Assembly (NCBI GenBank): GCA_012800435.1
Contig: JAAZJH010000072.1
Location: 76,943 to 140,942, forward strand
DNA: 64,000 nucleotides
Origin: Clostridiaceae bacterium
Lineage (GTDB): Bacteria; Bacillota; Clostridia; Saccharofermentanales; DTU023
Direction: 5' to 3'
Part shown: in pieces, positions 4,660 to 24,342 of the stretch
Position numbering within the stretch: the stretch's first letter is position 1
Layout: each line of letters opens with the position of its first letter
Position numbers and translations under genes: made by a program
Notes under the pieces: generated by a model
Seen by the model: the letters and a program-made list of their open reading frames with translations, nothing else
Database searches by the model: none
Told to the model about the DNA's origin: nothing

Positions 4660-6603
4660 TTAACTGTTAGCGATCGTAGCAAAATCGAGCGCTTTCAGTG
4701 ACGCACCGCCAACAAGTCCGCCGTCGATATGCGGTTGAGCAAATAGTTCTGCAGCGTTGTCGGCGTTAACAGATCCGCCGTACAGGATTTTGACGCTCAG
4801 CGCCTCCTCCGAGCTATACAGGTCGGAAAGAACCTCATAAATAAGTTCGCACATTTCTTCAGCCTGTTCGGGCGTTGCGGTATTGCCGGTGCCGATCGCC
4901 CAAATGGGCTCATAGGCAACGATTACTTGGCAAAGCTGCGACGCTTTCACTCCATCAAACGCTCTCTTAATCTGTGAGGTCACGCGGTCTTTTGTCTTCC
5001 CTTCTTTGCGCTCATCTTCCGTCTCACCGCAACAGACAATTGGACGTACGCCCCACTGCAATGCAGCGAGGAGCTTTTCATTTACGAACGCATCAGTTTC
5101 ATTGAAATATCCGCGACGCTCAGAGTGTCCGATGATGACATAGGGTACGTGCATCATCGCCAGTGTTCGCATAGAAATTTCGCCCGTGTACGCACCGGAA
5201 TCTTTCGGATGTCCGTTCTGCGCGGCGACATGAACAACTGTGCCATCTGATGCCTTTAGTGCTGCATCCAAGGCCGTAAACGGAACTGCAGCAATGACGC
5301 GTGCCGGCGCGTCGTCTAAAAGCGGAATCAACTGATGGATAAGATCCACTGCATCCTGAGGCGATTCGCGGTTCATCTTCCAATTACCTGCTGCCACTTT
5401 CGTTCGCGGATTGCGATCGAGCAGACAGTCAATACCGGGAAGCACTTTGCCTTCAAGGAACTCCAACGAAGCACCGCCACCGGTAGACACATGGCTCATT
5501 TTTGACGCTAGTCCGAACTGCTCCACGGCAGCCGCAGAATCACCGCCCCCGATAATAGTCACCGCGTCGATGTCTGCCATGGTTTCTGCCAACGCGCGTG
5601 TCCCCTTTGCGAATGCGTCAAACTCAAATACACCAACAGGCCCGTTCCAGATGACGGTTCCGGATTGGCGAATAATGTCGCAGAAAATGCGTGCCGTTTC
5701 AGGCCCAATATCAAGCCCCATCATGTCATCCGGAATCATATTCGAAGGTACTATGATGTATTTTGCATCTTTATCGAAACGATCGGCGACTACAAGATCG
5801 ACAGGAAGAACAAGCTTAACTCCTCGCTCATCTGCCTCTCGCATGAGCTCTTTAGCAAGTTCGATTTTGTCAGGTTCACATAGCGATGTGCCGACTGAGA
5901 AACCTTGCGCCGCAATAAACGTGTACGACATGCCGCCGCCTATGAGCAGATAATCCACTGTCTTCAGCAAGTTGCGAATGACACCGATCTTGTCATATAC
6001 TTTTGCGCCGCCGAGAATCGCCGTCATCGGTCGTTTCGGCTTAGAAAGCGCATTGCCCATCATGTTCAGCTCTCGGCTGATCGTATAGCCTGCCACCGCA
6101 GGCAAAAAGGATGCAACTCCCGATGTCGATGAATGAGCACGATGTGATGTGCCAAAGGCATCATTTACATAAATATCTGCCATAGAGGCAAGCTTTTGAG
6201 AAAAAAGAGGATGATTCGCTGTTTCTTCCTTGTGGAAACGGACATTCTCCAGAACAAGAACTTCACCATTCTTCAATGCTGCTACCTTGCTTTGAGCGTC
6301 TTCGCCTATGACATCATTGGCAAGTTTTACGTCCTGACCTAACAAGGCAGCGAGACGATGAGCGACATGCTTTAGCGTGAATTCCATGTCAAAGCCTTTG
6401 GGTCGTCCAAGATGTGTCGCAATAATAACGCGAGCACCGCGTTCTACAAGCGACTTGATCGTCGGCAGCGAAGCGCGAATACGGCGATCATCGGTAATTT
6501 CATTCGTTTCCCTATCGAACGGTACATTAAATTCAGTGCGCAAAAGAATGCGCTTTCCCTGAACATCAATGTCATCGATTGTCTTCTTATCGTATTGGAT
6601 CAC
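4660..6603 (-). CDS. pgk-tpiA: bifunctional phosphoglycerate kinase / triosephosphate isomerase fusion (PGK about aa 1-398, TIM about aa 400-647)
   Basis: The N-terminal part shows [19 protein letters not shown] and [11 protein letters not shown] motifs. The C-terminal part starts [10 protein letters not shown] and contains [22 protein letters not shown] and GGSV TIM motifs. It is a single uninterrupted frame with a GTG start at 6603, 7 nt after AGGAGG (6611-6616). Confidence 0.9.
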
Positions 6604-9175: not shown

Positions 9176-11029
9176 TTAGTCGTAAATACGTTTTACCAGG
9201 GAAGGCTGACGGTAATAGTTTCGTATGCCTTCAATTTTGGCAGCAGGCCGCGTTGCATGAACAAACTGCTCCCCTCCGATATAAATGGCAACATGATCAT
9301 AAGTCCTGCCGCCATTGCTTGAATAGAACAACAAATCGCCCGGCAACAGCGAGGAATAGTCGTAAGCTCTGAATGCCACTCTCGTGCCATAGGTCTGAGC
9401 AATAGTATTGGCGCTCTGTCTCGATCGCCAGTTGAAACCGGCAACTTTATAGACGTAGTACACGAGACCGGAACAATCCATATAATTCTTCGTCACTGCA
9501 TCGACAGTAGAGCGATACGGCACGCCGACACACGATCTTGCAATCTCAACGATGCGGGCGCGTACGGCATCATTGGCAGGATTGCCTCTAGCCGCGGATG
9601 AAGCGGGCGCCGGAGGAGAGGTTGGCTTCGTTGTCGTAGCCGGCTTCGTCGTTCCTGCACTTGACGCAGGAGTCGTGCTGGAAGGCGGCGAAGAAGGAAC
9701 TGTCGCTGTATTGCGAATCAAATCGTTGCGGATATAACCGAACTCGCCGTTTGGCGCTTTTACCATCGTCCATTCGCTGCCAACCGCTTTTGTCAAAATA
9801 GATGCACCTTCATAAACAACGGCAACGATTAACGAATCCGTATTCGGCATTGTGCGAATATTCACGGAAGCGCAATTGATGTATACCGTCTTCTCTACAC
9901 GAGTATATCCTGCCGGCGGAGGCGTAACGATGGTCAACATATCGCTGCGTATGAATCCGGTTTTACCGTTTGACAAGCGAACCTTTGACCACGTGCTGTT
10001 GGCCTCAATTTCATACACACTCTCATCGCGCTTCACGGAACCGATAATCGGTCCGTTAGCAGACGGTGAATTGCGCAACAAGACCTCATCCTCGTTGGCG
10101 TAGAGTGTACGGCCCATGCTCTCAAACGTATCCTCGGGAGGTGTCGATTTCAAAAGGTCTTTGTGAATATAGCCTTCAATGCCGCTGACAATACTAACCT
10201 GAACCCAATCGCCTTTTTCAGCGATCAGGCTGACACGATCGTTTTCACAAAGGTAAATGACCACTGCTGAGTTTTCAGTCGGCTGCTCGCGAAGATTAAC
10301 GACTTTCGCCTTAACGTAGAGATCGACAGGCGCAGGCGGAGCGACAGGTTCCGGACGTACGGGAACATTGACGTCAAAAAGATCGTTGCGCATGTAGCCC
10401 GTGATACCCGTCTCTGTGCGAACTTTCGACCATTCAGCGCCTTTCTCAAGCACGAGAAGTTTCAAGCCGAAAGTAGCCAGACCTTCGACGTCATGATTTT
10501 GACCGGGTCCGACACGCACATAAACTACTTCTTTTTGAACATAGTGCGGCGTATTATCAACGGGAGGCTTTGAGGGCGCCGCTGTTTCAACCGGCTCTGT
10601 AGGAAGCACATTCAACAACGCTTCCGGATCCGATTCCGAAGGTTCGGGCTCGTCGGTGATTTCAATAACGAGGGCGTCATTTGGAGACATCGTGTTATCG
10701 ACATCAAGCGGAAGCAGTTCATCCGGTTTGTTCGCTTTATCCTGTCGACTAAACGTTGGCGTATCACCTCGATTGATCAGCATGGCCTGGTGATTCTTTT
10801 GATCAAATTGTTCGAACGCTTGAATAGTCGCTTCCTTTTTGTTCGAAACGACCATTTGCGCGATAAATACAGAAAGCACAGCTACAAAGGCAATCACTGC
10901 AAGCGCGTAAAGAAGAAAATTCTTAGCAAGAATTTTCGTCAGCATGCGTCGCCACCGGCCAACCGGTACACGACTTGTGCGGAGTGTCACCGCACGTATA
11001 CCTTTTTTCGGATTCCGTCGTCCGTGCAT
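9176..11029 (-). CDS. membrane-anchored cell-wall hydrolase: TM anchor, four SH3b-like repeats, Pro/Thr/Ser linker, C-terminal NlpC/P60 domain
   Basis: Four repeats of about 60 aa each end in G(Y/F)(M/I)(R/H)xDL. The linker reads PSSPPSSTTPASSAGTTKPATTTKPTSPPAP. The C-terminus reads DCSGLVYYVY...GDLLFY...YDHVAIYIG, giving an NlpC/P60 Cys-His pattern. ATG 11029 is preceded by AAAGGAG at 8 nt; the track start 11053 is a TTG. Confidence 0.8.
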   Translation of the reverse strand: MHGRRNPKKGIRAVTLRTSRVPVGRWRRMLTKILAKNFLLYALAVIAFVAVLSVFIAQMVVSNKKEATIQAFEQFDQKNHQAMLINRGDTPTFSRQDKANKPDELLPLDVDNTMSPNDALVIEITDEPEPSESDPEALLNVLPTEPVETAAPSKPPVDNTPHYVQKEVVYVRVGPGQNHDVEGLATFGLKLLVLEKGAEWSKVRTETGITGYMRNDLFDVNVPVRPEPVAPPAPVDLYVKAKVVNLREQPTENSAVVIYLCENDRVSLIAEKGDWVQVSIVSGIEGYIHKDLLKSTPPEDTFESMGRTLYANEDEVLLRNSPSANGPIIGSVKRDESVYEIEANSTWSKVRLSNGKTGFIRSDMLTIVTPPPAGYTRVEKTVYINCASVNIRTMPNTDSLIVAVVYEGASILTKAVGSEWTMVKAPNGEFGYIRNDLIRNTATVPSSPPSSTTPASSAGTTKPATTTKPTSPPAPASSAARGNPANDAVRARIVEIARSCVGVPYRSTVDAVTKNYMDCSGLVYYVYKVAGFNWRSRQSANTIAQTYGTRVAFRAYDYSSLLPGDLLFYSSNGGRTYDHVAIYIGGEQFVHATRPAAKIEGIRNYYRQPSLVKRIYD

Positions 11030-11143
11030 TCCGAAAGCTCCTTTGCACAACAATACGCGTGCAGATAGTTAGACAGATTATAGCATCAGCGGTTAGGAAG
11101 AGCAACTTATGTCCATTAAGCCATAAAGCCTGTGTAGTGCAGA

Positions 11144-12751
11144 TTAGCAAAAAAGTAACATATTTGTAATATCTCTAAAAAAAGAGTTTACAAGTCTTGT
11201 GCCCGCAAGCGCATCGGCTGTTCCTCCTGCAGTTAGCCGTTCTTCCTCAAATTGTAATTCCAAAAGAGAAAGACATGCATCAATAGACGAATCGTCAGCT
11301 TTTATTAACGCCTCTATCCATGCAGTAATCCATTCATCATCCTGTAACCGCACATCGGGGACCCAATAGTTCAACAGGAAAGTACGCAAGGTATTGGAAC
11401 GCAAACTGCCTCCTCTTTTCGTAACGGTCGTATCATCGATTACTCCAAGTAAAGCCAAAAAGACACGGCGCCCCATTGCATCATCATATTCTGTGCTGTT
11501 TGATCCTAAGGAACAATAGACTGATGTCATCACCGGCAATCCTGTATCCATAATCGACGGGAAGCCTTTGAGCGCTTCCTGGCGAACTCCGGATGCTTCC
11601 GAGGCAACCGGAAGTACAGCTCTAACCTGCTCAAAGAACGGAGAATTATTAACAACATGCTCCAGTGCTTCTGCGACCTTGATGATCAAGAACTGAAATC
11701 TATCTTTTAGGGTATCCGACTTCTCAAAAAGCGTCGCGTCCTCTCCCAACGCGCCGCGAAAGAACAACCCCATCGCAGCAAGCAGCACACCGGACATGTA
11801 AATCCAACCACGGTGAGTATTAACGCCTTCTGTCGAATCAAACATGCGCTGTTCGGCAAATATTCCTTCCAGACGAAGCTTTTGCGCATCGTTTTGAGAT
11901 AACGCAGGCATCGTTTTAATGGCAGCGGGATGTTCATCAGATTTTACTCTGTTACTTGCTCGATTTCCCCTGCATTCGTATACTTCAAATGATTCCAACG
12001 AGACATATTCCTCGGAAAAAAAACCGATACGAAACGCAGCTTCATAGTAAGAATAAAATACCGATTGCGCACGACCAAAAGTAAAACGATCCATGTCATC
12101 ATGTGAACCGGAGCTCTGCATCGTGACAAGACCGGGTTTTTTGGACACCATAAGTTCAAATGAAGATGCTTCCGAAGCATTTGCCGCCATACGTGCCGAT
12201 GCCTCCCCGGCCACGGCCTGCATCATCCGCCTTTTAGTTTCGCGATCAAGCGCATTTGTATCATGCGCACGAGAACGCGCGCAGATTGAGGCTGGCTGAT
12301 CGCAGAGCAGACATCGCCGCGGCGAATCACCGAGCGCGCTTCGACTGATCTGGGAACCGTCTTGATCAATAACATCTAAATCAAGAAGACGAGAAGCGGG
12401 GCTTTGATCTTCCAAGGCTATTGCCAGACGTTTCACAGCATGAGCGCTTAGACCTTTTATGGCAAAAAGAGCTTCATCTCCCGTTTTTTCCCGCAAAATA
12501 TTTTCGTGCTCGATCTTCGCTCCGAGACCTTTTAATACATCTTTCAATCGTTTTACTTCATTGTTAAAAAAAAGAACACTCAAACGCGTGCGCTTGACGT
12601 TACCCGGGATATTGAGCGTCATAGAAAGAAGCGGCAAACCGGTCTCACTCAAGAGGCGTTTTTGACGTGCCAAGCGCAGATCACGCGCACGAAGCATCTC
12701 TTCAAGTTTCACAGGCTGATAATAGATTTGCTTTTCAAGCTTATTAGTCAT
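11144..12751 (-). CDS. citXG: fused holo-ACP synthase CitX (about aa 1-175) and triphosphoribosyl-dephospho-CoA synthase CitG (about aa 190-535)
   Basis: The N-terminal half resembles CitX (LEEMLRARDLRxxRQ, LNIPGxxK, DLDVID). The C-terminal half carries CitG motifs KPGLV...GSHDDM, EGVNTHRG, DTTVTKRGG and AGGTADAL. The ATG at 12751 overlaps the upstream stop by 8 nt. Confidence 0.85.
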   Translation of the reverse strand: MTNKLEKQIYYQPVKLEEMLRARDLRLARQKRLLSETGLPLLSMTLNIPGNVKRTRLSVLFFNNEVKRLKDVLKGLGAKIEHENILREKTGDEALFAIKGLSAHAVKRLAIALEDQSPASRLLDLDVIDQDGSQISRSALGDSPRRCLLCDQPASICARSRAHDTNALDRETKRRMMQAVAGEASARMAANASEASSFELMVSKKPGLVTMQSSGSHDDMDRFTFGRAQSVFYSYYEAAFRIGFFSEEYVSLESFEVYECRGNRASNRVKSDEHPAAIKTMPALSQNDAQKLRLEGIFAEQRMFDSTEGVNTHRGWIYMSGVLLAAMGLFFRGALGEDATLFEKSDTLKDRFQFLIIKVAEALEHVVNNSPFFEQVRAVLPVASEASGVRQEALKGFPSIMDTGLPVMTSVYCSLGSNSTEYDDAMGRRVFLALLGVIDDTTVTKRGGSLRSNTLRTFLLNYWVPDVRLQDDEWITAWIEALIKADDSSIDACLSLLELQFEEERLTAGGTADALAGTRLVNSFFRDITNMLLFC

Positions 12752-13718
12752 GAATTGACTCGCTACTTCTTTCCTTCTCTGACGGCATGTAGTGCATTAA
12801 CTTCAATGTATTAAGTTCGGAGAGACTGTAATCGCTAGGTATTTCAACGAGTCCGAGAATTTGTGCTTCTTTAGTGATGGGATGAGTGATGAATTCGTGG
12901 TAAAGCTGAAAATTTCGAATCTTTCCGGTCGATGCCACATGCATTCGCGGACCCGTACAGTAGTGGCGCTGGTCACCTATCAGAACGTGGGTATTATCCA
13001 AATATGAAATAGGCAAATCTTTCGCAATAAGACCATTGACATCTCTTTCCAAATCACGAAGATCAATGTCCGGTTTATCCTGAAACGAAAGGATAAAACC
13101 CGAGCGGACATCGTTATGTTCATAGCGGTAAACACGGCGGTCAATAAGACAGTACTCGACTAAATCTTCTGCCGAATGTGCCATCCGTCGCGTGTTAATC
13201 GATGCGTAGACTACTTCTTTAATATCATCCGGTTCCGGACCAAAAACACTTGGACGTGTCACTATGATTTCTTCACCGAGACCAATGAGCAAATGTGCAT
13301 TCACACCGAGATACGGATAAATCAAATCGAAATGCTCAACGATCACGCGTTTTCTACGCGATAGAGCTAAATTAATCGCATCGGCAAGCTCATGAGCTTG
13401 CGTGAACGCCAATTCAAAACGGATATCGATATGGTACGTGTGGGGCGTGAAAAAACCGGTATCGTCCTGATGGAGAAGCGGAAGCGGCCTCACGTTGACA
13501 CCTTCGTCATCGTTCGTCAACTCTAAACCCGGAAACATACCCTTGATCAGAATACTTTTTCCGGAACCGCTGTCTCCGATCAATCCGATCAATAGATCAA
13601 ACGGCGACAGATACTGCTGGGCAATCTGCATTCCTTGGTCTGCCATGCGCGCTGCGCCACGTGGTGACAAAAGAATCGAGTACAGATGGTTGCGTTGCAT
13701 ACGGTCTGAATATGACAT
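12744..13718 (-). CDS. uncharacterised P-loop NTPase (Walker A GDSGSGKS), translationally coupled to citXG
   Basis: 324-aa ORF with RBS GGAGAGGA before the ATG at 13718. Walker A sits at aa 48-55, followed by LELTNDDEG at aa 65-73. I recognise no other family motif. The stop TAA at 12744-12746 lies inside the citXG start region. Confidence 0.6.
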   Translation of the reverse strand: MSYSDRMQRNHLYSILLSPRGAARMADQGMQIAQQYLSPFDLLIGLIGDSGSGKSILIKGMFPGLELTNDDEGVNVRPLPLLHQDDTGFFTPHTYHIDIRFELAFTQAHELADAINLALSRRKRVIVEHFDLIYPYLGVNAHLLIGLGEEIIVTRPSVFGPEPDDIKEVVYASINTRRMAHSAEDLVEYCLIDRRVYRYEHNDVRSGFILSFQDKPDIDLRDLERDVNGLIAKDLPISYLDNTHVLIGDQRHYCTGPRMHVASTGKIRNFQLYHEFITHPITKEAQILGLVEIPSDYSLSELNTLKLMHYMPSEKERSSESIHD

Positions 13719-13781
13719 GAATAATCCTCTCCGGAACCGTCACACGTTAGACTGTGAAAGCGGTCACCCTGTTTTACTTAC

Positions 13782-13802
13782 TATTATAGATTTATTATAG
13801 AT
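13782..13802. repeat. tandem direct repeat TATTATAGAT x2 (11-bp period) in a divergent intergenic region
   Basis: Copies at 13782-13791 and 13793-13802, read directly from the sequence. They lie between the P-loop/citXG operon start and the SDR gene. Confidence 0.7.
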
Positions 13803-13951
13803 GAAGTTTAAGGATGAAGTGTGCCCGACTCGACATTAGATCTTTTCTTTTTCGTCATAATTTTCCGCTGTTTCTACGTAACTGTGCGTCTATGCACATG
13901 TTATAAAGAATATGCGGGTTTCTTACAACGATAGATTAGGGGGGACAAGCC

Positions 13952-15067
13952 GTGTCAATAAATACGGAAATAGAAAAAAATCATCAAAGCCATGACGTTA
14001 GCGGAGTTTTACAAAACGACCATAAAGTATGGATTGTGACCGGCGCCTCCGGTCATCTCGGTAATACAGTCATTCGACGCTTGGTTATGCAGGGTGCACA
14101 CGTACGCGCACTTATCATTGAAAAGGAACGTCCGGAAGCTTTGCGCGGTATTAACTGTGAAGTCATTTCCGGCAATATTTTAGACAGACAAAGCCTTGAA
14201 CCTTTGTTTGCAGGTTTAGAGGATAAGGAGATTTACGTCCTGCATTTAGCAGGCCAAATCAGCATCTTCTCAGGTCACGCCCCTGCCGTCTTCAAAGTAA
14301 ACGTCGACGGTACGAGAAATATGTTGGATGCCTCCGCTTACCACAGTGTTCACAGATTCCTCTATTGCAGCACGGTACATGCTATTCCTGTACCTGAGAA
14401 AGACGTTTCTATCGCTGAAATAGAACATTTCGATCCCGAACTTGTTATCGGAAGCTACGCCAAATCGAAAGCAAGTGCGACTAAGCTTGTTCTCGACGCA
14501 GCAAAGCAAGGTTTTCCCGCTGTGGTTGTCCAACCTGTCGGGATCCTCGGACCATACGATCAACTTCAAGGACATATGACCCGTCTCATCTCACGTTTTG
14601 CGCTTGGCCGACTTCCCGGAATGATCCGCGGCACTTATAATTTCGCAGATGTTCGCGATATCGCTGAAGGCGCCATCAATGCGATTTTGCACGGCAAGAT
14701 CGGCGAATCTTATATTCTTTCCGGCCATGTGACGAGTATCAAGGATATGTTAAATATTGTAGCTGAATTGATTGGACGCAAAAAAATAAAGCGGACGATT
14801 CCACTTTGGCTGGCACGCATTGGTGCGCCGATCATAGAAGGATTCAGCCGTATCTTCAATAAACCGCCGCTTTTTACGACATATTCACTTCATACACTTC
14901 AAACACCGTGTCATTTCTCCAGCGAAAAAGCGCGACATGAATTAGGCTACAGCATCCGTCCCCTAAAGGGAACACTACGGGACACGCTATTATTTATGGA
15001 ACGTCATCAGATGTTTGGTCGCCGTTGTCTCACTTTGAACATGAACAACAATGTATCAAAAAGCTGA
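13952..15067 (+). CDS. NAD(P)-dependent epimerase/dehydratase-family (extended SDR) protein
   Basis: Rossmann motif VTGASGHLGNTVIRRLV, YxxxK (YAKSK), and a length of about 370 aa. GTG start 7 nt after AGGGGGG. Confidence 0.75.
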   Translation: MSINTEIEKNHQSHDVSGVLQNDHKVWIVTGASGHLGNTVIRRLVMQGAHVRALIIEKERPEALRGINCEVISGNILDRQSLEPLFAGLEDKEIYVLHLAGQISIFSGHAPAVFKVNVDGTRNMLDASAYHSVHRFLYCSTVHAIPVPEKDVSIAEIEHFDPELVIGSYAKSKASATKLVLDAAKQGFPAVVVQPVGILGPYDQLQGHMTRLISRFALGRLPGMIRGTYNFADVRDIAEGAINAILHGKIGESYILSGHVTSIKDMLNIVAELIGRKKIKRTIPLWLARIGAPIIEGFSRIFNKPPLFTTYSLHTLQTPCHFSSEKARHELGYSIRPLKGTLRDTLLFMERHQMFGRRCLTLNMNNNVSKS

Positions 15068-15168: not shown

Positions 15169-16593
15169 TTATTTATGGACGGCGCGGATGACATCAAGCT
15201 CATCACCGTCTCGCCCGATAACGCGCGCCACTATGCGCCCTTCATTTTTCAGAAGGCGAGGCTTGCCTGTCAGGCGCTCTGCCTTTTCTTTCAATTCTTC
15301 AATTGAAAAAACAGGTAGTCCGGCACCCGTTAAACAATCGTGCAGATCACGACGTTTTGGATTGTACGCCATACCGTATTGCGTTACGAGAAGATCAATC
15401 GTCTTGCCCGGCGTTGAGACGGTTTGCGGGCGATCCACGATTAGAGGAAGACGTGCTCGCACGAGCGGGGCTGCGATGATCGCAAGCGAAGCGCCTGCCG
15501 CCGTATCGCTGTGTCCGCCTGAGCCGCCCATAATCATCCCGTTCGAATCGGTATGAACATTGACGCTGAAATCCGTACCGATTTCCGTCGCACCTAAAAT
15601 CACTGCATCAAGACGATCGACGATCGTGCTTTTTGCCTGCGGGCTAGCGTAGCGCGAAGCGCTGATTTCAACATGGTGCGGATTCTTACGTATCGATGCC
15701 GCCGCTTCACGATCGAAACACTGAACGTCGGCAAGTGATTTAAAAACACCTTCATTCAAAAGATCGACCAGCAATCCGGTAATCCCGCCTGAGGCAAAAC
15801 TGCCCGTAACACCAAGTTTTCGCATCCGCTCTCCGATGTAAGCAGCAGCGGCAAGAGACGTGCCGCCCGCGCCCGTCTGAAACGAGAAATCGTCCTCTAA
15901 AAGCCCGCACGCTTCAATCGCCCGTGCTGTATAATCTGCGATTAACAGACCTATCGGGTCGCGTGTAATGCGTGTGGTGCCGGACATGATGCGGTCGGGA
16001 TCGCCTATGGAATCACATACGACAACGGCATCAACAAGGTTCTCCGGAATAGATACGTCTGTCAGCGGATAAGGCATGAGGTGATCGGTAATGACGATAA
16101 CGTAGTCCGCATGAACGGCATCACTCATCGCATAACCGATGGATCCGAAAGCCGAGGGTCCTTCTTTGCCATTGCAGTTCCCTTCCGGGTCGGAAGCGGA
16201 CGCCGCGATAAAAGCGACATCAATGTGAGCCGTTCCGCTTTCTAACGCCGCAGGTCGCCCGCCGTGCGTCCGAAAAAGAACGTCATTCGCTAAAAGCCCT
16301 TGTGATATTGCGTGACCGACAGAGGCATGCATGAAATTACATTCGATTCCGGTAACAACTCCAGCTCGAATCGCCTCTACCAAAGGGGTATGACATGCCA
16401 TAATGGAAGACGCGTTTACTGTGAGATTCGAAAAACCAAGTTCTGTGCATGTGTGAAGAACATCATTGAGCACATAGTCACCCGCCCGCAGGTGATGATG
16501 AAAGGAAATCGTCATCCCGTCTTTTAAACAGGACGAGCGAATAGCATCCTTCAGAGAAGGCATAACCTTACCGGTTCGGCGGCTCAGTTTCAC
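15169..16593 (-). CDS. citF: citrate-lyase alpha-subunit family CoA-transferase (CitF-like; probably the citramalate lyase alpha chain)
   Basis: LKDGMTISFHHHLRAGD, typical of CitF, with Gly-rich CoA-transferase segments. GTG 16593 follows AAAGGAG and sits 4 nt after the citE stop. Confidence 0.85.
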   Translation of the reverse strand: MKLSRRTGKVMPSLKDAIRSSCLKDGMTISFHHHLRAGDYVLNDVLHTCTELGFSNLTVNASSIMACHTPLVEAIRAGVVTGIECNFMHASVGHAISQGLLANDVLFRTHGGRPAALESGTAHIDVAFIAASASDPEGNCNGKEGPSAFGSIGYAMSDAVHADYVIVITDHLMPYPLTDVSIPENLVDAVVVCDSIGDPDRIMSGTTRITRDPIGLLIADYTARAIEACGLLEDDFSFQTGAGGTSLAAAAYIGERMRKLGVTGSFASGGITGLLVDLLNEGVFKSLADVQCFDREAAASIRKNPHHVEISASRYASPQAKSTIVDRLDAVILGATEIGTDFSVNVHTDSNGMIMGGSGGHSDTAAGASLAIIAAPLVRARLPLIVDRPQTVSTPGKTIDLLVTQYGMAYNPKRRDLHDCLTGAGLPVFSIEELKEKAERLTGKPRLLKNEGRIVARVIGRDGDELDVIRAVHK

Positions 16594-16597
16594 TTTT

Positions 16598-17497
16598 CTA
16601 ATCTCCTTTCGTCGATGTTGAACGTGATGTGCTCAACATGCCTGATGCAGTGGCGAGCTCAAGCGTTCGCTCTGCTTGCGCTAATACGGGAAGATCAATC
16701 ATTTTACCTCTGAGCGAAACAGCGCCAAGTCCCTCTTCTTTTGCTCGTCTCATCGCGCTAACCACGTCAAGTGCATAAGCGACCTCGCTTTCGCTTGGTC
16801 GAAACGCTCTATGGATAGGTTCGAGATGGTGCGGTGAAATGGCAAGTTTTCCGCTGAAACCGAGACTTCGAGCGTAAGATGCATCCTCGTAGCAACCTTC
16901 CGCATCGCGTGCATCAGTGAACGGGGTATCGATAACATCCAATCCACATGCGCGACCGGCCATTACCAGTCTTGTACGCGCATAAAACAGTTCTCGTGAC
17001 GCTTTCGTTCTGGAGCAGCCTAAATCCGCTGCAAGATCTTCGCCTCCAAGTGCAAGTGCGCGCACACGAGACGAAGCAGATGCAGCTTCAAAAGCTTTCT
17101 CAATGCCCATAGCCGTTTCAATGAGAAGAATCAAGCCGACACTACCGAGCGGCAAATCGGCTTTTTCTTCAGCTTCATCCAGGATAGATGCCGCTTTTTG
17201 AACGGTGTCAGAACCGACCGTTTTTGGCACCATTAGGGCGTCCGCCCCGGCTTTCGTGACATTGATGATGTCAAGGCGGGCATGAAAAGTTTCCATGTCA
17301 TTGATGCGCACGACCTTTTCTCGCACACCGAAGTCAAGCGTTGTCAGTGCCTGACTGATAAGTTCGCGTGCCGCATCCTTCTCTTTCTCAGAAACGGCAT
17401 CTTCTAAATCAAAAATTAGAACATCACACGGAAGCACCATCCCGTTTTGCAATATATTCGGTTGGTTGCCGGGTAAAAAAAGACATGAGCGCCTCAT
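16598..17497 (-). CDS. citE: citrate-lyase beta-subunit family (CitE-like, HpcH/HpaI aldolase fold; probably the citramalate lyase beta chain)
   Basis: From the internal MRRSCLFLPGNQPNILQNG...DVLIFDLEDAV the protein matches CitE-type N-termini. The 41-codon extension in the ORF track overlaps citD and is basic junk. Confidence 0.85.
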   Translation of the reverse strand: MRRSCLFLPGNQPNILQNGMVLPCDVLIFDLEDAVSEKEKDAARELISQALTTLDFGVREKVVRINDMETFHARLDIINVTKAGADALMVPKTVGSDTVQKAASILDEAEEKADLPLGSVGLILLIETAMGIEKAFEAASASSRVRALALGGEDLAADLGCSRTKASRELFYARTRLVMAGRACGLDVIDTPFTDARDAEGCYEDASYARSLGFSGKLAISPHHLEPIHRAFRPSESEVAYALDVVSAMRRAKEEGLGAVSLRGKMIDLPVLAQAERTLELATASGMLSTSRSTSTKGD

Positions 17498-17508
17498 CGC
17501 AATCCTCC

Positions 17509-17829
17509 TTATTCCGTCATAACGACTGTGTTCCCGTCTTTCCCTGAAGGATCTGCGGTATCGTCTTCTTCCATCAAAGCACGGCTGATTGCCGTATGGA
17601 GTCGCGCACGAAGTGTACAATCCAATGCTCCTTGATCGTCAAGATGAATGGCTCCTTGGCGAATGTTCATCGCATCAAGGACATCGCGAGCAGAACGTTC
17701 TATTGCATCGCCGAACTGGCGCACTACAGGAGATTGAATCTCAATTGTTAGCGTATCTGAAGGCATGACGGTCACAAGCACATCACCAGACTCCAACGTG
17801 CCTGCATGAGCTTTTTTCTGAATTTTCAT
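17509..17829 (-). CDS. citD: lyase acyl carrier protein (CitD, gamma subunit)
   Basis: MKIQKKAHAGTLESGDVLVTV matches the CitD AGTLESSD prosthetic-group serine motif. AGGAG precedes the ATG at 17829. Confidence 0.85.
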   Translation of the reverse strand: MKIQKKAHAGTLESGDVLVTVMPSDTLTIEIQSPVVRQFGDAIERSARDVLDAMNIRQGAIHLDDQGALDCTLRARLHTAISRALMEEDDTADPSGKDGNTVVMTE

Positions 17830-17912
17830 CTCCAACTCCTTCTTTAAGCTTGCGGACAAATGCATTATGATCGCCTAATGTCTCATCAAGGCTGAAGTCA
17901 TTTGCGAGCTAT

Positions 17913-19160
17913 TTATCTTATAATGTCAGTGCGAAGTGCAAGGATCCTTTGCATTTCATTGCGTGCGATCATGATGCCCTCATCGACACCCATGCCCGGC
18001 TTAGCGAGGATCTGAGCCGGACGCATCGCCATCGCGACGTGCACACACACTTGTGCAGAACGGTCCGTTTCGTTGCATGTGCCTCCTTGATATGCGCCGA
18101 TACCGTGATCAAGACAATAGCGCAATGCTTCCGCTGTTTTATGAAGACTTCCGAGATCCGGGGTCTTGACCTGAATCATGTGACCGGCTCCGGCATCTAC
18201 AAAATCGCGAACATCGTCTACCGTATTGCACCACTCATCGGCGACTAACTCGACGGGAATGCCTCGTCTTCCAACTTCACGTGTAAGCGCCGCAAGCCAC
18301 TTAAGTTGCAGATCCCGCGTTCCAGCATCAATCGGCCCCTCAATTCGCAACTTGAAAGGATCGGCAAGCTTTGCAAGTCTTGATAGATAGTCGGTAATCG
18401 ACTCGATATTGTCATAACCAAAGCATTGACCAATTGTGCCGTATACATCGATTTGAATCATTGGCTGATAATCTTCACTTCCTCTGAAACGCAGAATACG
18501 CTCACGCAACCAATTGACGTATTCAGCCAACGTATCCCCATTGGGACCGAGCTTTTCCAGATTATTAATCAGTGCATGCGGAAGGACGTCTACCTCTTTT
18601 AGAATCATTTTATCGACATTAAGGTGCCGCGCATCGCCGGATTGAGCAAAAATCGGAATCGCACGATCACTGACTGTGGTCCCAAACTCATCCGCGACAA
18701 CTTCACACATCAACTTGCGTTGACTTAGCGCGACGGCATCCAGTACGGCCTGAGAGAGACCGTAGCGAATTGCAGAATGAAGTTTCTTTCCGTCGTGATC
18801 GTGAAAATCTTCGAAAACCTCCATTGTTTCTTTAAAAGATGTCAGTGACTTTCCTACCAGCTTCGGCGCGACATCTTTTTCAATGATCGGAATAAAATCT
18901 TTGGCAAGAAAGAGAGGATCGCGACCGCCGGCACCTGAATACTGGACAGCAGCAGCATCGCCCCACGCGACTTGTCCATCTTCAAGAACGAGCATAATGG
19001 AAATAGATTCCCCCGCCTGTCGAATTTGATCAAATCCGAGCGTCTCAGGCTGCCCTGTGTAAAACATCCCGTCGCTTCCCGCACCTGCTTTGATAGCGGC
19101 TTGATCGTCAAAGTAAAACCCCGTTACACCGGGTGCGCAAATAATATTTTTAATTTTCAT
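17913..19160 (-). CDS. mal: methylaspartate ammonia-lyase (beta-methylaspartase)
   Basis: MKIKNIICAPGVTGFYFDDQAAIKAGA...VLEDGQVAWGDAAAVQYSGAGGRDPLFLAKDFIP is near-collinear with the clostridial methylaspartase sequence as I recall it. Confidence 0.92.
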   Translation of the reverse strand: MKIKNIICAPGVTGFYFDDQAAIKAGAGSDGMFYTGQPETLGFDQIRQAGESISIMLVLEDGQVAWGDAAAVQYSGAGGRDPLFLAKDFIPIIEKDVAPKLVGKSLTSFKETMEVFEDFHDHDGKKLHSAIRYGLSQAVLDAVALSQRKLMCEVVADEFGTTVSDRAIPIFAQSGDARHLNVDKMILKEVDVLPHALINNLEKLGPNGDTLAEYVNWLRERILRFRGSEDYQPMIQIDVYGTIGQCFGYDNIESITDYLSRLAKLADPFKLRIEGPIDAGTRDLQLKWLAALTREVGRRGIPVELVADEWCNTVDDVRDFVDAGAGHMIQVKTPDLGSLHKTAEALRYCLDHGIGAYQGGTCNETDRSAQVCVHVAMAMRPAQILAKPGMGVDEGIMIARNEMQRILALRTDIIR

Positions 19161-19178: not shown

Positions 19179-20636
19179 TTATTCATTTCTCGGGCGCCCG
19201 ACCAAGCGTCCCTTACTAATAGCATAAACATCATCGATGACCATTTGGAAGGAAGCTTCACGTTTCTCGTATTTCGCGCGTGCTTCCATCTTCTGGCGGT
19301 GAAAATCAAGCAATTCTTGTGTCAGGGGAACGTTCCCCGGGTGGAATAGACGAATAGCGCCGTCGTTGTCGCGGGCAGGAAGCATCTTGCCGGCGTTATA
19401 ACGGCTTGGCGCAAATGGAATATCGAGAACGCCAGAACGAATTGCGAGAATGGTGCCACGTGCAATGTCGCCCTTTCCGAGCTCAAAACATTTCTCAAGC
19501 ACACATCGCGTTTCTGAGGCGATAATGACTTTTTCATCTTGCAGACTGTACGTGTCTAGACTTTGCTCGCCCAACATATTAATCATCTGTTTCGTACACA
19601 AAAGTCCCGATGCGTTCGCTTCTTTTGTGGGAACGCCGAACGCTTCATGCGGCGTCTTGACGATGACTTTCGTCGCATGTGAAAGCGCTGCGACAGCGCT
19701 CCCCCACCCGATTACCGCATACGCCTTGGCTTCACTTTGCGGGAAACCGCCCATCCATTGATGTAAGACGGTTGTAACCTGAACATCACCATAACCGTAT
19801 TTACGAAGGTATTCGTCCGTCAAGCTTTGCAATACTTGCATAGCCGCAACATCCTGCACAAGATGACCACACTGTCCGTATCCAACCGTGATGTTTTTCA
19901 CTCCCTGTTCCGCAGCTAGGAGACTTTCAATGATGGCAACGGCATGTGAGATAAAAGGCGGTACGAGTGTGCCGGTAAGAGGACCGTACGGTTCACGATT
20001 GATTGGACAGCCGGATTCTTCGTACAATCCCGTTAGTCGATCTACATATTGCCAATCGCGAATTGTACGTTCCAACGATACATTTTTCGCGTAGGGAATA
20101 TTGTAAGAGATTCCACCGCCTTCAAAGCTTGTGAAACCTCCGGCGTAGGTCATTTCAGCCAAAAGCCGTGCGTCCGGAGTGCCGTGACGGATCTGTATTG
20201 GTCGTTCAAGAGATTCAATCAACAGCCGGCAACCGCGCACACCGTGGTTAACGGCAGGAAATCCGTTCAGCATATTTTTTTGCGTGCGTACCGACTCTTC
20301 AATTCCAACTTCCGCCTCTTGGTAACGATTCTGACGTGTATAACTGTCAATTGTCGTCGGCAGAAGATCAGCCTCCCCTTCGTTCTGTAGATATGTCAGA
20401 AGATTGATCATATCCTGTACAAGCGGGACACCCGCTCGCGGCTGCACAAGTGTCACTTGCTTCTTCTTCGCCTCGTTAAGCGCATTGCTAAACACTTTCG
20501 TCGGCTCGAGTCCCTGATGATACGCGAACGCTTCTTCGAGATTGACGTCTTTTCCGGTCGGCCACTGCGTAAGCACTTCTTGGCGCTTGCGTTCAAAGTC
20601 ATCGAGCGTCCATTTCTCGTTGCGAACTTCATCCAT
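19179..20636 (-). CDS. glmE: glutamate mutase (methylaspartate mutase) epsilon/E subunit
   Basis: [50 protein letters not shown] and IVKTPHEA are all characteristic GlmE/MutE blocks. Length 485 aa. Confidence 0.92.
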
Positions 20637-20690: not shown

Positions 20691-22118
20691 TTATTCTTTG
20701 GTATAGACATGCGAAGCTGTACTCATCCCCAAAGATATCAGTTCTTTTTTCATCAAACGCAGCGCTATGTCACTCTCTCGTTCGGCAAGCACACCCATCG
20801 CTGCAAGTATATAACGCTTATCAAGCCAGATCTCAGCCTCTATTGGGCGTAATGAAAAGGGATTATCTTCTGAAAAGAGCGCATGTTCGGCAATCGATCT
20901 CGGATCAGACGCATGAATGACCGAACCGCCCGTCAACAAAATATGACGGACACCTCGCAAATCTTTGCCGGTTTGGACGTATACGATACCGGATGTCGTG
21001 TATGCCTCTTCAAGAGTGCCGGCATGACGCGTGGACGCGATACCGACGGCACTCGAAGCTAATACCCGATCCAAAGAAGATGAACGCGGATCATCTATTG
21101 TCGGCACGTACGCCTTATTTTTCGAGATGGCAGTCAAGTAATGCTGTACATCCTCCTCGGTCGTGTCGGACATTTCGGCAAGACGTGCGGTTCCTATGAC
21201 GTCATTAATGCCCGTTGCACTGTAGCGCATACCGATGTCACCCTCAACGGTACGCTTGGCGTACGGTTCTTCCAAGCCTTTTAATACGACGCTGACGTCC
21301 GTAGGATGACCTTCTGCGATGGAATAAGCATCGGTCGTCGCACCCCCCACATCGATAGCAAAAAGTTCACCGATTCCCGCCTCACGTTTAGTTCCTTTCG
21401 CGAGCAGTACCATCGCGGAAAGCACCGCAGACGGCGTAGGCATCAGAATTCCTGAAAGCAGGCTTGATGCCTTTGTCATCCCGCGAGCTCGAATGATATG
21501 TGTTAAAAATAACGATCGAATGGCCTTTTGAACAGGGTCAATATTCAGCTTGTTGAAACGAGGCATGACATTCGGACAGACCGTTGTCTCAAAATCGCTG
21601 AGAATATCTTCACAATCATCGACCGCATCGCGATTACCGGCTATAATGATCGGAAAACGTGCATCCAGACGCGCCAATGCCTCCGCATTATCTGTGATAA
21701 CCGCTCGGTTGCCGCCGTCCGTGCCGCCTGCCAGAAGAAAAATATCAGGAGGGTTCGCCTCAATATGAGCCAAATCCTGCCTGCTTAGTCGATGCGTAAA
21801 AACTCGTGTAATCTTTGCGCCGGCGCCAAGTGCAGCCAACCGACCTGCTTCAGCTGTTAATTCCGGCATTAATCCGGACACAATCATACGCAAACCGCCT
21901 GCAGCAGATGAGCAGGCAAGGCGGTAATCATATTGGAGCACACCGATCTCTTTCTCCAGATCGTTCATCGCTAAAGAAAGACCATCGCCAATATCATGAT
22001 CGACCGTCGTGAAAGCCGACGCGTGCCCAAGCAGAACTTCCTCATCCAAATCAACAGCCGTCACTTTAGTAAACGTGCTGCCAAAATCAATGAGTAAAAC
22101 AGGACGCATCTTATTCAA
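20691..22118 (-). CDS. glmL: glutamate mutase accessory protein GlmL/MutL (ASKHA-fold putative reactivase/chaperone)
   Basis: [16 protein letters not shown] at the N-terminus, a second DVGGATTD phosphate motif, and a position between glmS and glmE. There is an 8-nt overlap with glmS. Confidence 0.85.
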
Positions 22119-22533
22119 CCCCGAGATCTTTCTTCAGCCAATTAATTGTTGTTTTCGGCGGTGTGCCTGGTGGAAATACGCGGTCAAAACCCATGGCGTG
22201 GAAGCGTTTTTCAACTTCGGAAAAATCTTGTTTACCTACGACGATATTCCCTCCAACGTAAAGAAGAATGCCTTCCAGACCTGCCTCATCACACTTATCA
22301 CGAAATCCGCGGCAATCGAGTTCGCCATGGCCGTAGAGTGAAGAGACAATGATCGCATCGGCCTGAGTTTCGATCGCTGCGCCGATATATTCTTCCTGTG
22401 AAACCATCACTCCGAGATTTGTGACATCGAATCCGGCTTCGGTGAAAGCAAAATCAAGTATTCGAATACCAACAGCGTGTACGTCGGCACCAATAACGCC
22501 GATAACCAGTTTTTTACCATTCGATTCCTGCAT
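22111..22533 (-). CDS. glmS: glutamate mutase sigma/S subunit (cobalamin-binding)
   Basis: [16 protein letters not shown] carries the DxHxxG B12 motif, followed by [12 protein letters not shown] and [12 protein letters not shown] 22533 is preceded by GAGGA; the track start 22545 is a GTG. Confidence 0.9.
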
Positions 22534-22601
22534 GTTGATCCTCACGTTCTTTCGGCATATTTCACGCCCTTAAGTTCTAACATCTTTCTGTTTTACTGAT
22601 T

Positions 22602-22703: not shown

Positions 22704-23750
22704 TTAGTCCGGTCGCCCGATGTCGCGCAGCTCTCGATATCGTTCATCTACGGCGCGTCGCACATAGAGCATCGATCCTTCATCACATTCAAATCGGGTA
22801 CGGACGACACGCATGCCTGAAAGCGCCCGCTCGCGCACAAGCGCCATCACTGAGGAAGGTGCAAAATCCGCTACCTCCGGCGCGAGCATGAGGCAGTCCT
22901 GTTGTTTCATAAACTCTTTCATGCCGGCTTGTTCACGCAACTGTTGTGAAGCAATCACACATGCCTCGGGCAAATACGGTAAAAGAGCCTGTTTCATCAC
23001 TTTGAAAAAGCCTTCACTTGCCGTTAGGAAGCCGACACTCTCTCCCGGCTTTACTGAAAGACAAGCGGCCATTGTATCGCTTTCGGGCCGGAGCGCGACC
23101 GGCAAAATCGCCACTCTGTCTGATACAATGAGCGACAACTCGCGGTAGAGGGCTGTGGGGGTAACTATAAAGTCATACCCCATATCTATGCGGTCAGGAC
23201 TTGCGAGAACATCATCATATGACAACCAAAAACGCATCGTCATGGTGAGTGTCTCCATCGCTCGATCCATCACCGAACGCTCTTCCGGCGTTGCCGCAAT
23301 GAGCGCGAGTCGAACAGGACGGCGTTCATCTTCTTTCTGTCGAAGTCGTAATTCGAAGAAGATTTGCGCTTCACGTGTGGAAAAACCGAGCTCTGTCATC
23401 GCGGAAAGCGTGTCATCGATTGCCTTCATCGCACGCTCCTTACGACTCTTCATCGGCTCATCTATTACTTGGCCAACCACAAAGGTACCCTGACCGCGAC
23501 GTGAAACAACAGCTCCCTCACGACTGAGCAACGCATAAACATGGCGGATGGTACCTATGGAAACGTCGTACTGTTCTGCCATATTTCGGATGGACGGCAA
23601 CTTCGTATGTTCTGAAAGTTTGCCTGATGCAATGTCAGCCCGAATCGCTTCAGCGATTAATTGATAGATCGGACGTTTATCAATATTGACGCGACCTTCT
23701 AAGACATTTTTCAGCATCGTATCTTCAGTCATCCTCAGTTCGCTCTCCAT
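22704..23750 (-). CDS. GntR-family transcriptional regulator with a large (about 250 aa) C-terminal effector domain
   Basis: Winged-helix block YQLIAEAIRADIASGKLSEHTKLPSIRNMAEQYDVSIGTIRHVYALLSREGAVVSRRGQGTFV. The start is uncertain: ATG 23750, 23732 or 23717, none with a clean SD. The first overlaps the upstream gene by 26 nt. Confidence 0.8.
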   Translation of the reverse strand: MESELRMTEDTMLKNVLEGRVNIDKRPIYQLIAEAIRADIASGKLSEHTKLPSIRNMAEQYDVSIGTIRHVYALLSREGAVVSRRGQGTFVVGQVIDEPMKSRKERAMKAIDDTLSAMTELGFSTREAQIFFELRLRQKEDERRPVRLALIAATPEERSVMDRAMETLTMTMRFWLSYDDVLASPDRIDMGYDFIVTPTALYRELSLIVSDRVAILPVALRPESDTMAACLSVKPGESVGFLTASEGFFKVMKQALLPYLPEACVIASQQLREQAGMKEFMKQQDCLMLAPEVADFAPSSVMALVRERALSGMRVVRTRFECDEGSMLYVRRAVDERYRELRDIGRPD

Positions 23751-24342
23751 CAGCGATATTATCTACAACAATATTTTGCATCGCGCGCCAAGCAGCAGGA
23801 CCTTCATCATAGAGGTCACGTCCTTCCGTATCGATGGCAACTGTCACAGGAAAGTCGCGCACTCGGATCTGGCGAAGCGCCTCTGTTCCAAGATCCTCCC
23901 AAAATAGAATCTCCGATGACTCGATGGCGTGTGAAAGCAGCGCGCCTGCTCCGCCCGTCGCGGCAAAATACACACATCCATAACGTGTCATCGCGTCAAT
24001 CACTTCAGGACTGCGTTTTCCTTTTCCGATCATGCCGCGAAGACCGCGAGCAATCAGGTAAGGAGCGTATGGATCCATACGGTATGATGTTGTCGGTCCG
24101 GCAGACCCCATCGCGTATCCGGGAAGCGGAGGCGTCGGCCCAACGTAAAATATGACGGCGCCCTCCAGCGGAAAAGGCGGATCTTCATTACGCTCCAACA
24201 GAGCGACAAGACGTTGATGGCCGGCATCGCGAAGTGTAAACATCGGTCCCGTAAGAAGAACGCGCTCCCCCATGCGAAAACTTGACACTATCTCCTTTGT
24301 CAACGGTAGAGTTACTCGGCGAACTGCCTCATTATGATTCAT
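23725..24342 (-). CDS. Fe-S hydro-lyase beta subunit (class I fumarate hydratase C-terminal-domain type; mesaconase candidate)
   Basis: From the internal MNHNEAVRRVTLPL the protein reads LTGPMFTLRDAGHQRL...VIFYVGPTP...GPTTSYRMD...GMIGKGKR. The ATG at 24342 shares one base with the alpha-subunit TAA (TAATG) and follows AGGAGG at 7 nt. Confidence 0.8.
   Translation of the reverse strand: MNHNEAVRRVTLPLTKEIVSSFRMGERVLLTGPMFTLRDAGHQRLVALLERNEDPPFPLEGAVIFYVGPTPPLPGYAMGSAGPTTSYRMDPYAPYLIARGLRGMIGKGKRSPEVIDAMTRYGCVYFAATGGAGALLSHAIESSEILFWEDLGTEALRQIRVRDFPVTVAIDTEGRDLYDEGPAAWRAMQNIVVDNIADGERTEDD

Follow-up and report, generated by a model that had tools for sequence, protein, structure and literature searches.

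The 64,000-nucleotide (nt) stretch analysed here, called the window below (positions 76,943 to 140,942 of contig JAAZJH010000072.1, from a Clostridiaceae bacterium), encodes on its minus strand, at 12744..13718, a 324-amino-acid (aa) protein of a very tightly conserved family for which we have coined the name TGT in this report. TGT is an accessory gene of glutamate fermentation by way of 3-methylaspartate, the pathway made up of glutamate mutase, methylaspartase, mesaconase and citramalate lyase. Judged by sequence comparison and a structure model, its product is an accessory protein specific to that pathway, with a predicted intact ATP site in a TsaE-like N-terminal domain and a conserved site of metal-binding or catalytic type in an AlaX-like C-terminal domain, and it is independent of the type of lyase with which the pathway is completed.

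The TGT gene and its family

The open reading frame is a real gene, since it has homologues in 3848 clusters at 90% identity and its exact sequence, on record as NLZ67282.1, is found on 59 contigs. Its ATG start lies 7 nt from the Shine-Dalgarno sequence GGAGAGG (13726..13732, minus strand; read from the sequence), and its 3' end is joined to citXG (11144..12751, minus strand), a fusion of holo-acyl carrier protein (ACP) synthase (PF03802, 4e-47) and triphosphoribosyl-dephospho-CoA synthase (PF01874, 7e-33). The 8-nt overlap ATGACTAA (12744..12751, minus strand) holds both the TGT stop TAA (12746-12744) and the citXG ATG (12751-12749), an arrangement for translational coupling, and the identical overlap is present in independent gene calls on four other contigs with the identical protein. 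Reading frame, ribosome-binding site and overlap are all as a preliminary description of this DNA, made from the letters alone, had given them. TGT here is co-translated with citXG and heads a small transcription unit, which is cut off from the citDEF operon by an inserted gene of the short-chain dehydrogenase/reductase (SDR) or epimerase family (13952..15067, plus strand; Pfam Epimerase, 1e-25); close relatives also have this opposite-strand gene between citF and TGT-citXG.

At least 555 species genomes encode a TGT, among the Bacillota (Clostridia and Negativicutes), Chloroflexota, Spirochaetota and Bacteroidota, and a profile run against 1.84 billion representative proteins gave 324 sequences, the 150 listed being mostly short TGT-family fragments. 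The Walker A residues, like H96, E128, R177, H181, E184, D203 and C254, do not vary even in homologues of 39% identity. The remark in the preliminary description that most of the protein is like nothing with a name holds good: the window protein has no match in Pfam or NCBIfam at E <= 0.01, sequence searches of the PDB, whether begun from the single sequence or from a profile, yielded nothing beyond a generic P-loop likeness to ABC ATPases (E > 0.04), and literature searches found no paper on the family. At NCBI its members are named by one domain alone or, wrongly, as "lantibiotic ABC transporter".

Two loci (L086 and L087, positions 2-1600 in each) carry two tandem TGT genes. The first is canonical but cut by the contig end. 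The second, P0137, shares 38% identity with the window protein and is degenerate, H181, C254 and H260 being lost and a GK[ST] P-loop kept; the two may form an enzyme/pseudo-enzyme pair.

The spacer 5' of TGT in the window holds a tandem direct repeat, ATCTATAATA-A-ATCTATAATA (13780-13810, minus strand), with two TATAAT boxes inside it, and a terminator-like stem lies in the same gap at 13750-13765 (plus strand). A promoter scan gave sites no more numerous than in shuffled sequence, and a 10-nt match, AGATTTATTA, of the DNA upstream of TGT with that upstream of mesA was rejected as a shared regulon signal, being at chance level.

Association with the methylaspartate pathway and two types of lyase

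Genomic context was surveyed in the best 80 TGT genome loci, with flanks of 10 kb. Genes of the methylaspartate pathway are present in 77 of these (Glm/Mal in 58, mesaconase in 36), and most of 37 metagenome loci, which were retrieved through a TGT paralogue, also have TGT co-located with pathway genes. Cit-type lyase or lyase-biogenesis genes occur in 34 of the 80 loci, and AtuA together with DUF4387 in 30. AtuA matches PDB entries 9erq/9evf, titled "Citramalate lyase, subunit A (cmlA)", at 1e-164; the AtuA/DUF4387 pair was therefore rejected as a possible unknown partner of TGT, being the already solved CmlAB citramalate lyase, and TGT thus accompanies two non-homologous citramalate lyases. 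CmlAB has been described as cleaving citramalate directly, the two cmlAB genes sufficing in E. coli (bioRxiv 10.64898/2026.01.16.699985). In the 30 loci of this type TGT stands directly after CmlAB, and its 10-kb flanks are free of acyl-carrier, CitX/CitG and CitC genes. The subclades of TGT interleave the Cit-type and Cml-type contexts, and all of its functional residues are the same in both.

No locus among the 80 has both lyases. The mutual exclusion of CitDEF (with CitC and CitXG where present) and CmlAB, 34 loci against 30, amounts to a clear-cut non-orthologous displacement inside a single pathway; the loci concerned include L017, L019, L020, L023 and L025-L030, as well as L081 (E. coli) and L138 (Prevotella). 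In the Cml-type clusters of E. coli TGT is absent, and a blastn search of E. coli genomes found none.

The immediate upstream neighbour of TGT is CmlB in 26 loci, Mal in 16 and CitC in 4, and the immediate downstream neighbour is CitXG in 17, MesA in 11, CobO in 8 and CitD in 5. Pelosinus has the order gntR-glmS-mutL-glmE-mal-TGT-citD-citE-citF-citC, and Prevotella nigrescens glmS-glmL-glmE-mal-cmlA-cmlB-TGT-mesA-mesB, while in Peptoclostridium acidaminophilum a citC-TGT-citX(G) unit diverges from citD-citE-citF on the other strand. The link to lyase-biogenesis genes that had been drawn from the window alone is therefore a recurrent one, with TGT adjoining citXG in 17 of the 80 loci and standing between citC and citXG elsewhere.

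In the window itself the lyase genes close off a complete cluster for glutamate fermentation through 3-methylaspartate, all on the minus strand: mesA (24342-25184), mesB (23725-24378), gntR (22704-23750), glmS (22111-22545), mutL/glmL (20691-22118), glmE (19179-20636) and mal (17913-19160), all identified by Pfam, followed by citD-citE-citF (15169..17865), an ACP-dependent lyase with its citD homologue at 17509-17865, citE at 16598-17620 and citF at 15169-16593. Pfam and NCBIfam recognise the last three as ACP/citD, HpcH_HpaI/citE and CitF, and so bear out, together with the two domains of citXG, the CitD, CitE, CitF, CitX and CitG homologues listed earlier. The same cluster has been described in glutamate-fermenting clostridia, the "citrate lyase" genes there being taken as citramalate lyase (PMC4682846; PMC8473912). 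Because its genes belong to the complete cluster, the CitDEF lyase of the window is most likely, by context, the citramalate lyase of the methylaspartate pathway and not a citrate lyase. As called mechanically, citE has 340 aa from a TTG start and runs into citD for about 110 nt; on identical contigs the calls are shorter, 299 aa for citE and 106 aa for citD, so the true starts lie further downstream.

In three loci a citC-TGT or citC-TGT-citX unit lies inside or abuts the histidine-utilisation genes hutH, urocanase, hutI, ftcD and hutD (L099, 6917-8859; L100, 3911-5853; L139, 11002-21376). Histidine breakdown ends in glutamate, so that the two pathways appear to be wired together.

These neighbourhoods bring up the strongest rival to the function that we favour below, a factor for maintenance of the lyase that would act beside CitC, CitX and CitG without replacing CitC; we consider it unlikely, though it deserves serious attention. 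Such a factor could hydrolyse misacylated or adenylylated ACP, deacetylate the lyase, or hold the triphosphoribosyl-dephospho-CoA precursor, with the P-loop binding the triphosphate while the 2'-substituted adenosine sits in the AlaX-like pocket. It would account for the translational coupling of TGT to citXG in the window and for the recurrence of citC-TGT-citXG as a unit divergent from citDEF (L063, L070, L080, and L043 without citXG), which P. acidaminophilum and 15 of the 37 metagenome loci also have; it would account likewise for the TGT-citXG pairs kept with no citDEF within 10 kb (L021, L024, L026, L048 and L075) and for the citC-TGT pair standing by itself among the hut genes of L099 and L100. 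It does not, however, fit the 30 loci in which TGT follows CmlAB and CitD, CitX/CitG and CitC are all missing from the 10-kb flanks, nor the segregation of the two lyase types into separate loci when TGT has the same residues with each and its subclades mix the two. CmlAB, moreover, is described as acting on citramalate directly, its two genes being functional in E. coli, and in L031, L069, L072 and L118-L120 TGT accompanies glm, mal or mes genes with no lyase gene at all within 10 kb.

That Glm/Mal is the most frequent association (58 of 80 loci), that cobO overlaps TGT on its 3' side in 8 loci and that TGT is independent of lyase type would suit a chaperone of the B12-dependent glutamate mutase, with TGT gating the transfer of adenosylcobalamin from CobO to GlmS/E or aiding the reactivase MutL. 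There are models for such a role: MeaB assists methylmalonyl-CoA mutase, and TsaE docks on the ASKHA-fold proteins TsaB/TsaD, MutL being of the same fold clan; the weak match of MutL to Hydant_A_N is consistent with an ASKHA-type partner. Like the MeaB/MMAA-type chaperones, TGT is a P-loop NTPase whose gene lies near that of a B12 mutase and, at some loci, near that of an adenosyltransferase, but it is TsaE-like rather than a G3E GTPase, has no B12-binding motif and never adjoins a mutase-subunit gene, whether glmS or glmE, or mutL. In split operons it stays with mes/gntR or with citC/citXG and not with glm (L026, L061, L065, L099), and E. coli-type clusters have glmSLE and cobO without TGT. 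We regard a chaperone role as improbable.

Coexistence with CitC

The preliminary description had noted the lack of a CitC-type ligase in the window and had proposed that the P-loop protein stands in for it, as a non-orthologous replacement that acetylates or activates the lyase thiol in genomes without citC. The observation itself stands, in that neither phmmer with a CitC query nor a hidden Markov model (HMM) of ten CitC sequences found a CitC in the six-frame translation of the 64-kb window. The lineage of the window has citDEF and citXG with no citC within 10 kb in L002, L005, L007, L008 and L010, loci that span citF to citXG; L056 and L074 also have none within 10 kb, and of the 120 closest relatives of the CitC of the sister lineage none could be attributed to the window organism.

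In that sister lineage, whose TGT is 75% identical, the order is mal-TGT-citD-citE-citF-citC-citXG, so that citC sits between citF and citXG and shares the operon with TGT. With CitC called by PF08218, and by TIGR00124 above its cut-off, a single operon encodes both proteins in 9 of the 80 genome loci, in Pelosinus and P. acidaminophilum, and in 15 of the 37 metagenome loci, where citC-TGT-citXG is the standard layout on many rumen and gut contigs. The survey thus speaks against homologues confined to loci that lack citC, which is what the proposal had led one to expect. Since TGT shares operons with CitC in many lineages, it is not used in its place, and the same conserved protein goes with CmlAB in loci that have no acyl-carrier genes within 10 kb. 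CitC and TGT are alike in lying beside citX/citG, often as direct neighbours of each other, and CitC needs ATP, for which TGT also bears a P-loop, but they are unrelated in sequence and fold. The window protein matches neither the Pfam nor the NCBIfam model of CitC at E <= 0.01 and shows no match to a HIGH-type nucleotidyltransferase domain; its C-terminal domain is of a hydrolytic family, and it has no adenylate-forming or acyltransferase domain. Replacement of CitC by TGT is accordingly very hard to credit.

Three candidates for a CitC of the window organism were rejected: P0339, whose contigs have 61% GC against 48% in the window and thus belong to another organism; P0343, which is part of an ordinary citrate-lyase cluster; and P0412, which led to the citC-TGT pair of yet another organism. 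P0339 (341 aa; L093-L096, 6001-7026) is a stand-alone CitC homologue with no lyase genes nearby, flanked by ornithine-fermentation genes (ornithine aminomutase, OrtA-type) and an oxaloacetate-decarboxylase operon.

The N-terminal domain

A first structure model of TGT, built with 28 close homologues, had a pLDDT of 70.8; with a divergent clade added (55 sequences) the final AlphaFold model reached a pLDDT of 86.8 and a pTM of 0.83. In this model the N-terminal domain (about aa 1-160; 13239..13718, minus strand) has the fold of TsaE/YjeE, the ATPase subunit of the bacterial N6-threonylcarbamoyladenosine (t6A) complex TsaBDE. Foldseek against the PDB gave 1htw (1.7e-5), 6nak_D (2.9e-5), 1fl9 and 6n9a_E, within a range of 1.7e-5 to 9e-5, all with a probability of 1.00 and a target-normalised TM-score of about 0.53. 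Sequence is consistent with the model at a lower level: 41 of the 55 members match Pfam TsaE (PF02367) weakly, with a best E of 9e-4, the window protein scoring 13.1 bits (E 0.093) where the gathering threshold is 26.6 bits, and hhalign to E. coli TsaE aligned the P-loop region alone, with a probability of 29%.

The Walker A motif GDSGSGKS (aa 48-55; 13554..13577, minus strand) has G48, G53, K54 and S55 invariant in 81 sequences, as are H96, D98 and E128. The motifs of E. coli TsaE have counterparts in TGT in the same order, GDLGAGKT/GDSGSGKS, NVKSPTYTL/VNVRPLPLL, YHFDLYR/YHIDIRF and LVEW/VEHF, which may be summarised as Walker A, NV(K/R)xP, YHxDxxR and VE(W/H); those that follow the P-loop (YHIDIRF and VIVEHF) were matched by eye, hhalign and hmmsearch having aligned the P-loop region alone. 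On the model and these motifs, the N-terminal domain is predicted to be a P-loop ATPase of TsaE/YjeE type with its nucleotide-binding motifs intact. TGT and TsaE are both accessory rather than core catalytic proteins. They differ in that TGT falls below the Pfam threshold, has a second domain fused to it, carries an extra, highly conserved N-terminus of 40 residues and an insertion at aa 82-92, and lies in glutamate-fermentation operons; clustering of neighbours showed no recurrent gene of tsaB/tsaD type, and a tsaD 4 kb from TGT in Prevotella is a single case.

The GDSGSGKS and LELTNDDEG motifs had been noted from the sequence, and both are there, although the latter (aa 65-73) begins 10 residues past the end of the P-loop and not about 15 as first stated. 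The likeness to HPr kinase or to PRK/uridine kinases that had been read into them amounts to a shared P-loop of GDSGxGKS type followed by an acidic segment containing DD, and it does not extend to the fold, which in the model is TsaE-like joined to AlaX-like. HprK has no entry among the 50 Foldseek matches listed in either search and no Pfam match, and the sole match to PRK, 5b3f, is at chance level (E 0.24 by sequence; Foldseek probability 0.11).

A kinase may be considered on other grounds. TGT could be a regulatory ATPase or kinase, in which the AlaX-like domain senses glutamate, 3-methylaspartate, mesaconate or citramalate and the TsaE/UbK-like domain phosphorylates or gates a pathway enzyme or GntR. 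In about 12 metagenome loci (L110-L120, L131) TGT stands alone and diverges from the entire pathway operon, as genes for regulators typically do; TGT lies beside gntR in L054, and there are small TGT-mesA-mesB-gntR units. Among the Foldseek matches of TGT is 5mvr, which we take to be the B. subtilis TsaE homologue YdiB. B. subtilis YdiB has been reported as having protein-kinase activity, and in Clostridium sphenoides the citrate-lyase ligase is controlled by phosphorylation. TGT is, however, without a DNA-binding or receiver domain and is usually tightly coupled within enzyme operons, and its near-invariant His and Cys residues of catalytic type, described in the next section, point to chemistry over plain ligand sensing. 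We therefore think a regulatory function quite unlikely.

The C-terminal domain

The C-terminal domain (about aa 163-300; 12819..13232, minus strand) resembles AlaX and the editing domains of AlaRS and ThrRS (tRNA_SAD-like). Foldseek matched it to 2e1b (AlaX-M, 6e-4), 3rfn, 3rhu, 1qf6 and 1tje, at 6e-4 to 1e-2 and with a probability of 1.00. Pfam tRNA_SAD (PF07973) is matched weakly by 38 of the 55 members (best E 7e-5), below the gathering threshold of 24 bits, with example matches of 14.9-15.8 bits at aa 245-279. By hhalign the whole editing domain of E. coli AlaRS (561-686) was aligned, at a low probability that is due to the template being a single sequence.

In that alignment R178-MAH181-SAED185 corresponds to AlaRS R561-LNH564-SATH568, and C254-TGPRM-H260 to C666-GGTH670. 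The counterpart of the AlaRS HxxxH motif (H564..H568), H181-S-A-E-D185 (13164..13178, minus strand), is not intact, its first His being kept (H181 in 79 of 81 sequences) and its second being Asp or variable (D185 in 77). The counterpart of CxxxH (C666..H670), C254-TGPRM-H260 (12939..12959, minus strand), has C254 and R258 invariant and H260 in 78 of 81; its spacing is Cx5H by a two-residue insertion, Pro-Arg, that carries R258. Three of the four zinc-ligand positions of AlaRS are thereby kept in TGT, and the substrate-contacting T567, Q584 and S587 are replaced by Glu184, His201 and Asp203. The domain is, on this modelling, of AlaX/AlaRS-editing type, with its pocket remodelled by Glu184, Asp185, His201, Asp203 and the inserted Arg258.

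TGT thus shares with the AlaX, AlaRS and ThrRS editing domains the fold (2e1b, 1qf6, 1tje), the RxMAH...CxG...H motif positions that align with R561, H564, C666 and H670, and the STGxIxxF strand that follows the Cys motif. It differs from them in having HxxxD/E for HxxxH and CxxxxxH with an invariant inserted Arg for CxxxH, in scoring below the Pfam threshold, in being fused to an ATPase and in being without C-Ala or another tRNA-binding domain.

A possible editing or reset function

AlaX clears tRNAs of a wrong amino acid that has been esterified to their terminal adenosine, and TsaE spends ATP to reset a partner enzyme. By analogy with these two, the reading that we favour, tentatively and in the knowledge that the odds are against any single one, is that TGT may be an ATP-coupled, metal-dependent hydrolase of an editing or reset kind, not a ligase. 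Its task would be to cleave off an acyl group that has become attached in error and that occurs only while the methylaspartate pathway is running, and the enzyme would be needed only when flux through that pathway is high. As a specific target we would suggest tRNA that carries 3-methylaspartate, an abundant aspartate analogue, in which case Arg258 might bind the carboxylate of the side chain, with Asp203/Glu184 contacting the amino group. This target was chosen because it fits the ancestry of both domains and is independent of lyase type, and because TGT is restricted to organisms that run the pathway and has a pocket remodelled with an Arg and acidic residues; mischarged tRNA as the substrate is itself a doubtful proposition, and is to be judged apart from the hydrolase as such.

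Several observations weigh against the editing reading. No tRNA or aminoacyl-tRNA synthetase gene recurs near TGT, the protein is acidic (pI about 5.5), and we know of no trans-editing factor that requires ATP. Our literature search found nothing on mischarging with 3-methylaspartate. H201 is replaced by Phe in the branch of Prevotella and P0127, H260 is Gln in the Prevotella homologue, and the second His of HxxxH is replaced, so that catalysis at the metal site may not extend to all members of the family. CmlB, CitC, CitXG and CitD make up most of the immediate neighbours, which a role linked to the lyase fits at least equally well. Finally, the E. coli-type clusters without TGT and the sufficiency of the two cmlAB genes indicate that it is dispensable for the chemistry of the pathway. 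The probability left over from the readings set out in this and the foregoing sections goes to something not yet thought of.

Other genes of the window

Directly 3' of citXG and on the same strand lies a gene for a 625-aa cell-wall hydrolase with three SH3_3 repeats and an NlpC/P60 domain (9176-11053, minus strand), followed by one for a family 2 glycosyltransferase (GT2). The order citXG-hydrolase-glycosyltransferase is kept in related metagenome-assembled genomes, so the TGT-citXG unit may run on into unrelated genes. Further along, a 647-aa open reading frame (4660-6603, minus strand) is a fusion of phosphoglycerate kinase and triose-phosphate isomerase (PF00162 and PF00121), according to calls on identical regions of related contigs.

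Significance

Work on the enzymes of the 3-methylaspartate pathway, a textbook fermentation, goes back to the 1950s, and all genes of its cluster are considered assigned (PMC4682846). A strongly conserved additional gene in that cluster, in more than 500 species of at least four phyla, means that some part of the pathway, or something that maintains it, is still to be defined. The carriers of TGT include bacteria of the gut, the mouth and the rumen, and the existence of cultured hosts makes the family tractable by experiment. For annotation, both the domain-based name and the "lantibiotic ABC transporter" label hide a family that is specific to one pathway, and the tempting inference that a P-loop protein next to citXG replaces a missing CitC is corrected.

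Both domains are of known kinds, but neither for their joining in one protein nor for its constant position within the operon of a classical fermentation did we find a characterised example. As an ATPase akin to that of the t6A machinery is joined here to a domain of tRNA-editing type, working out what TGT does would widen the known roles of either family. Should the editing reading prove true, this would be the first catabolic operon known to have a translational proofreading factor of its own, and TGT would be the first ATP-coupled member of the AlaX superfamily.

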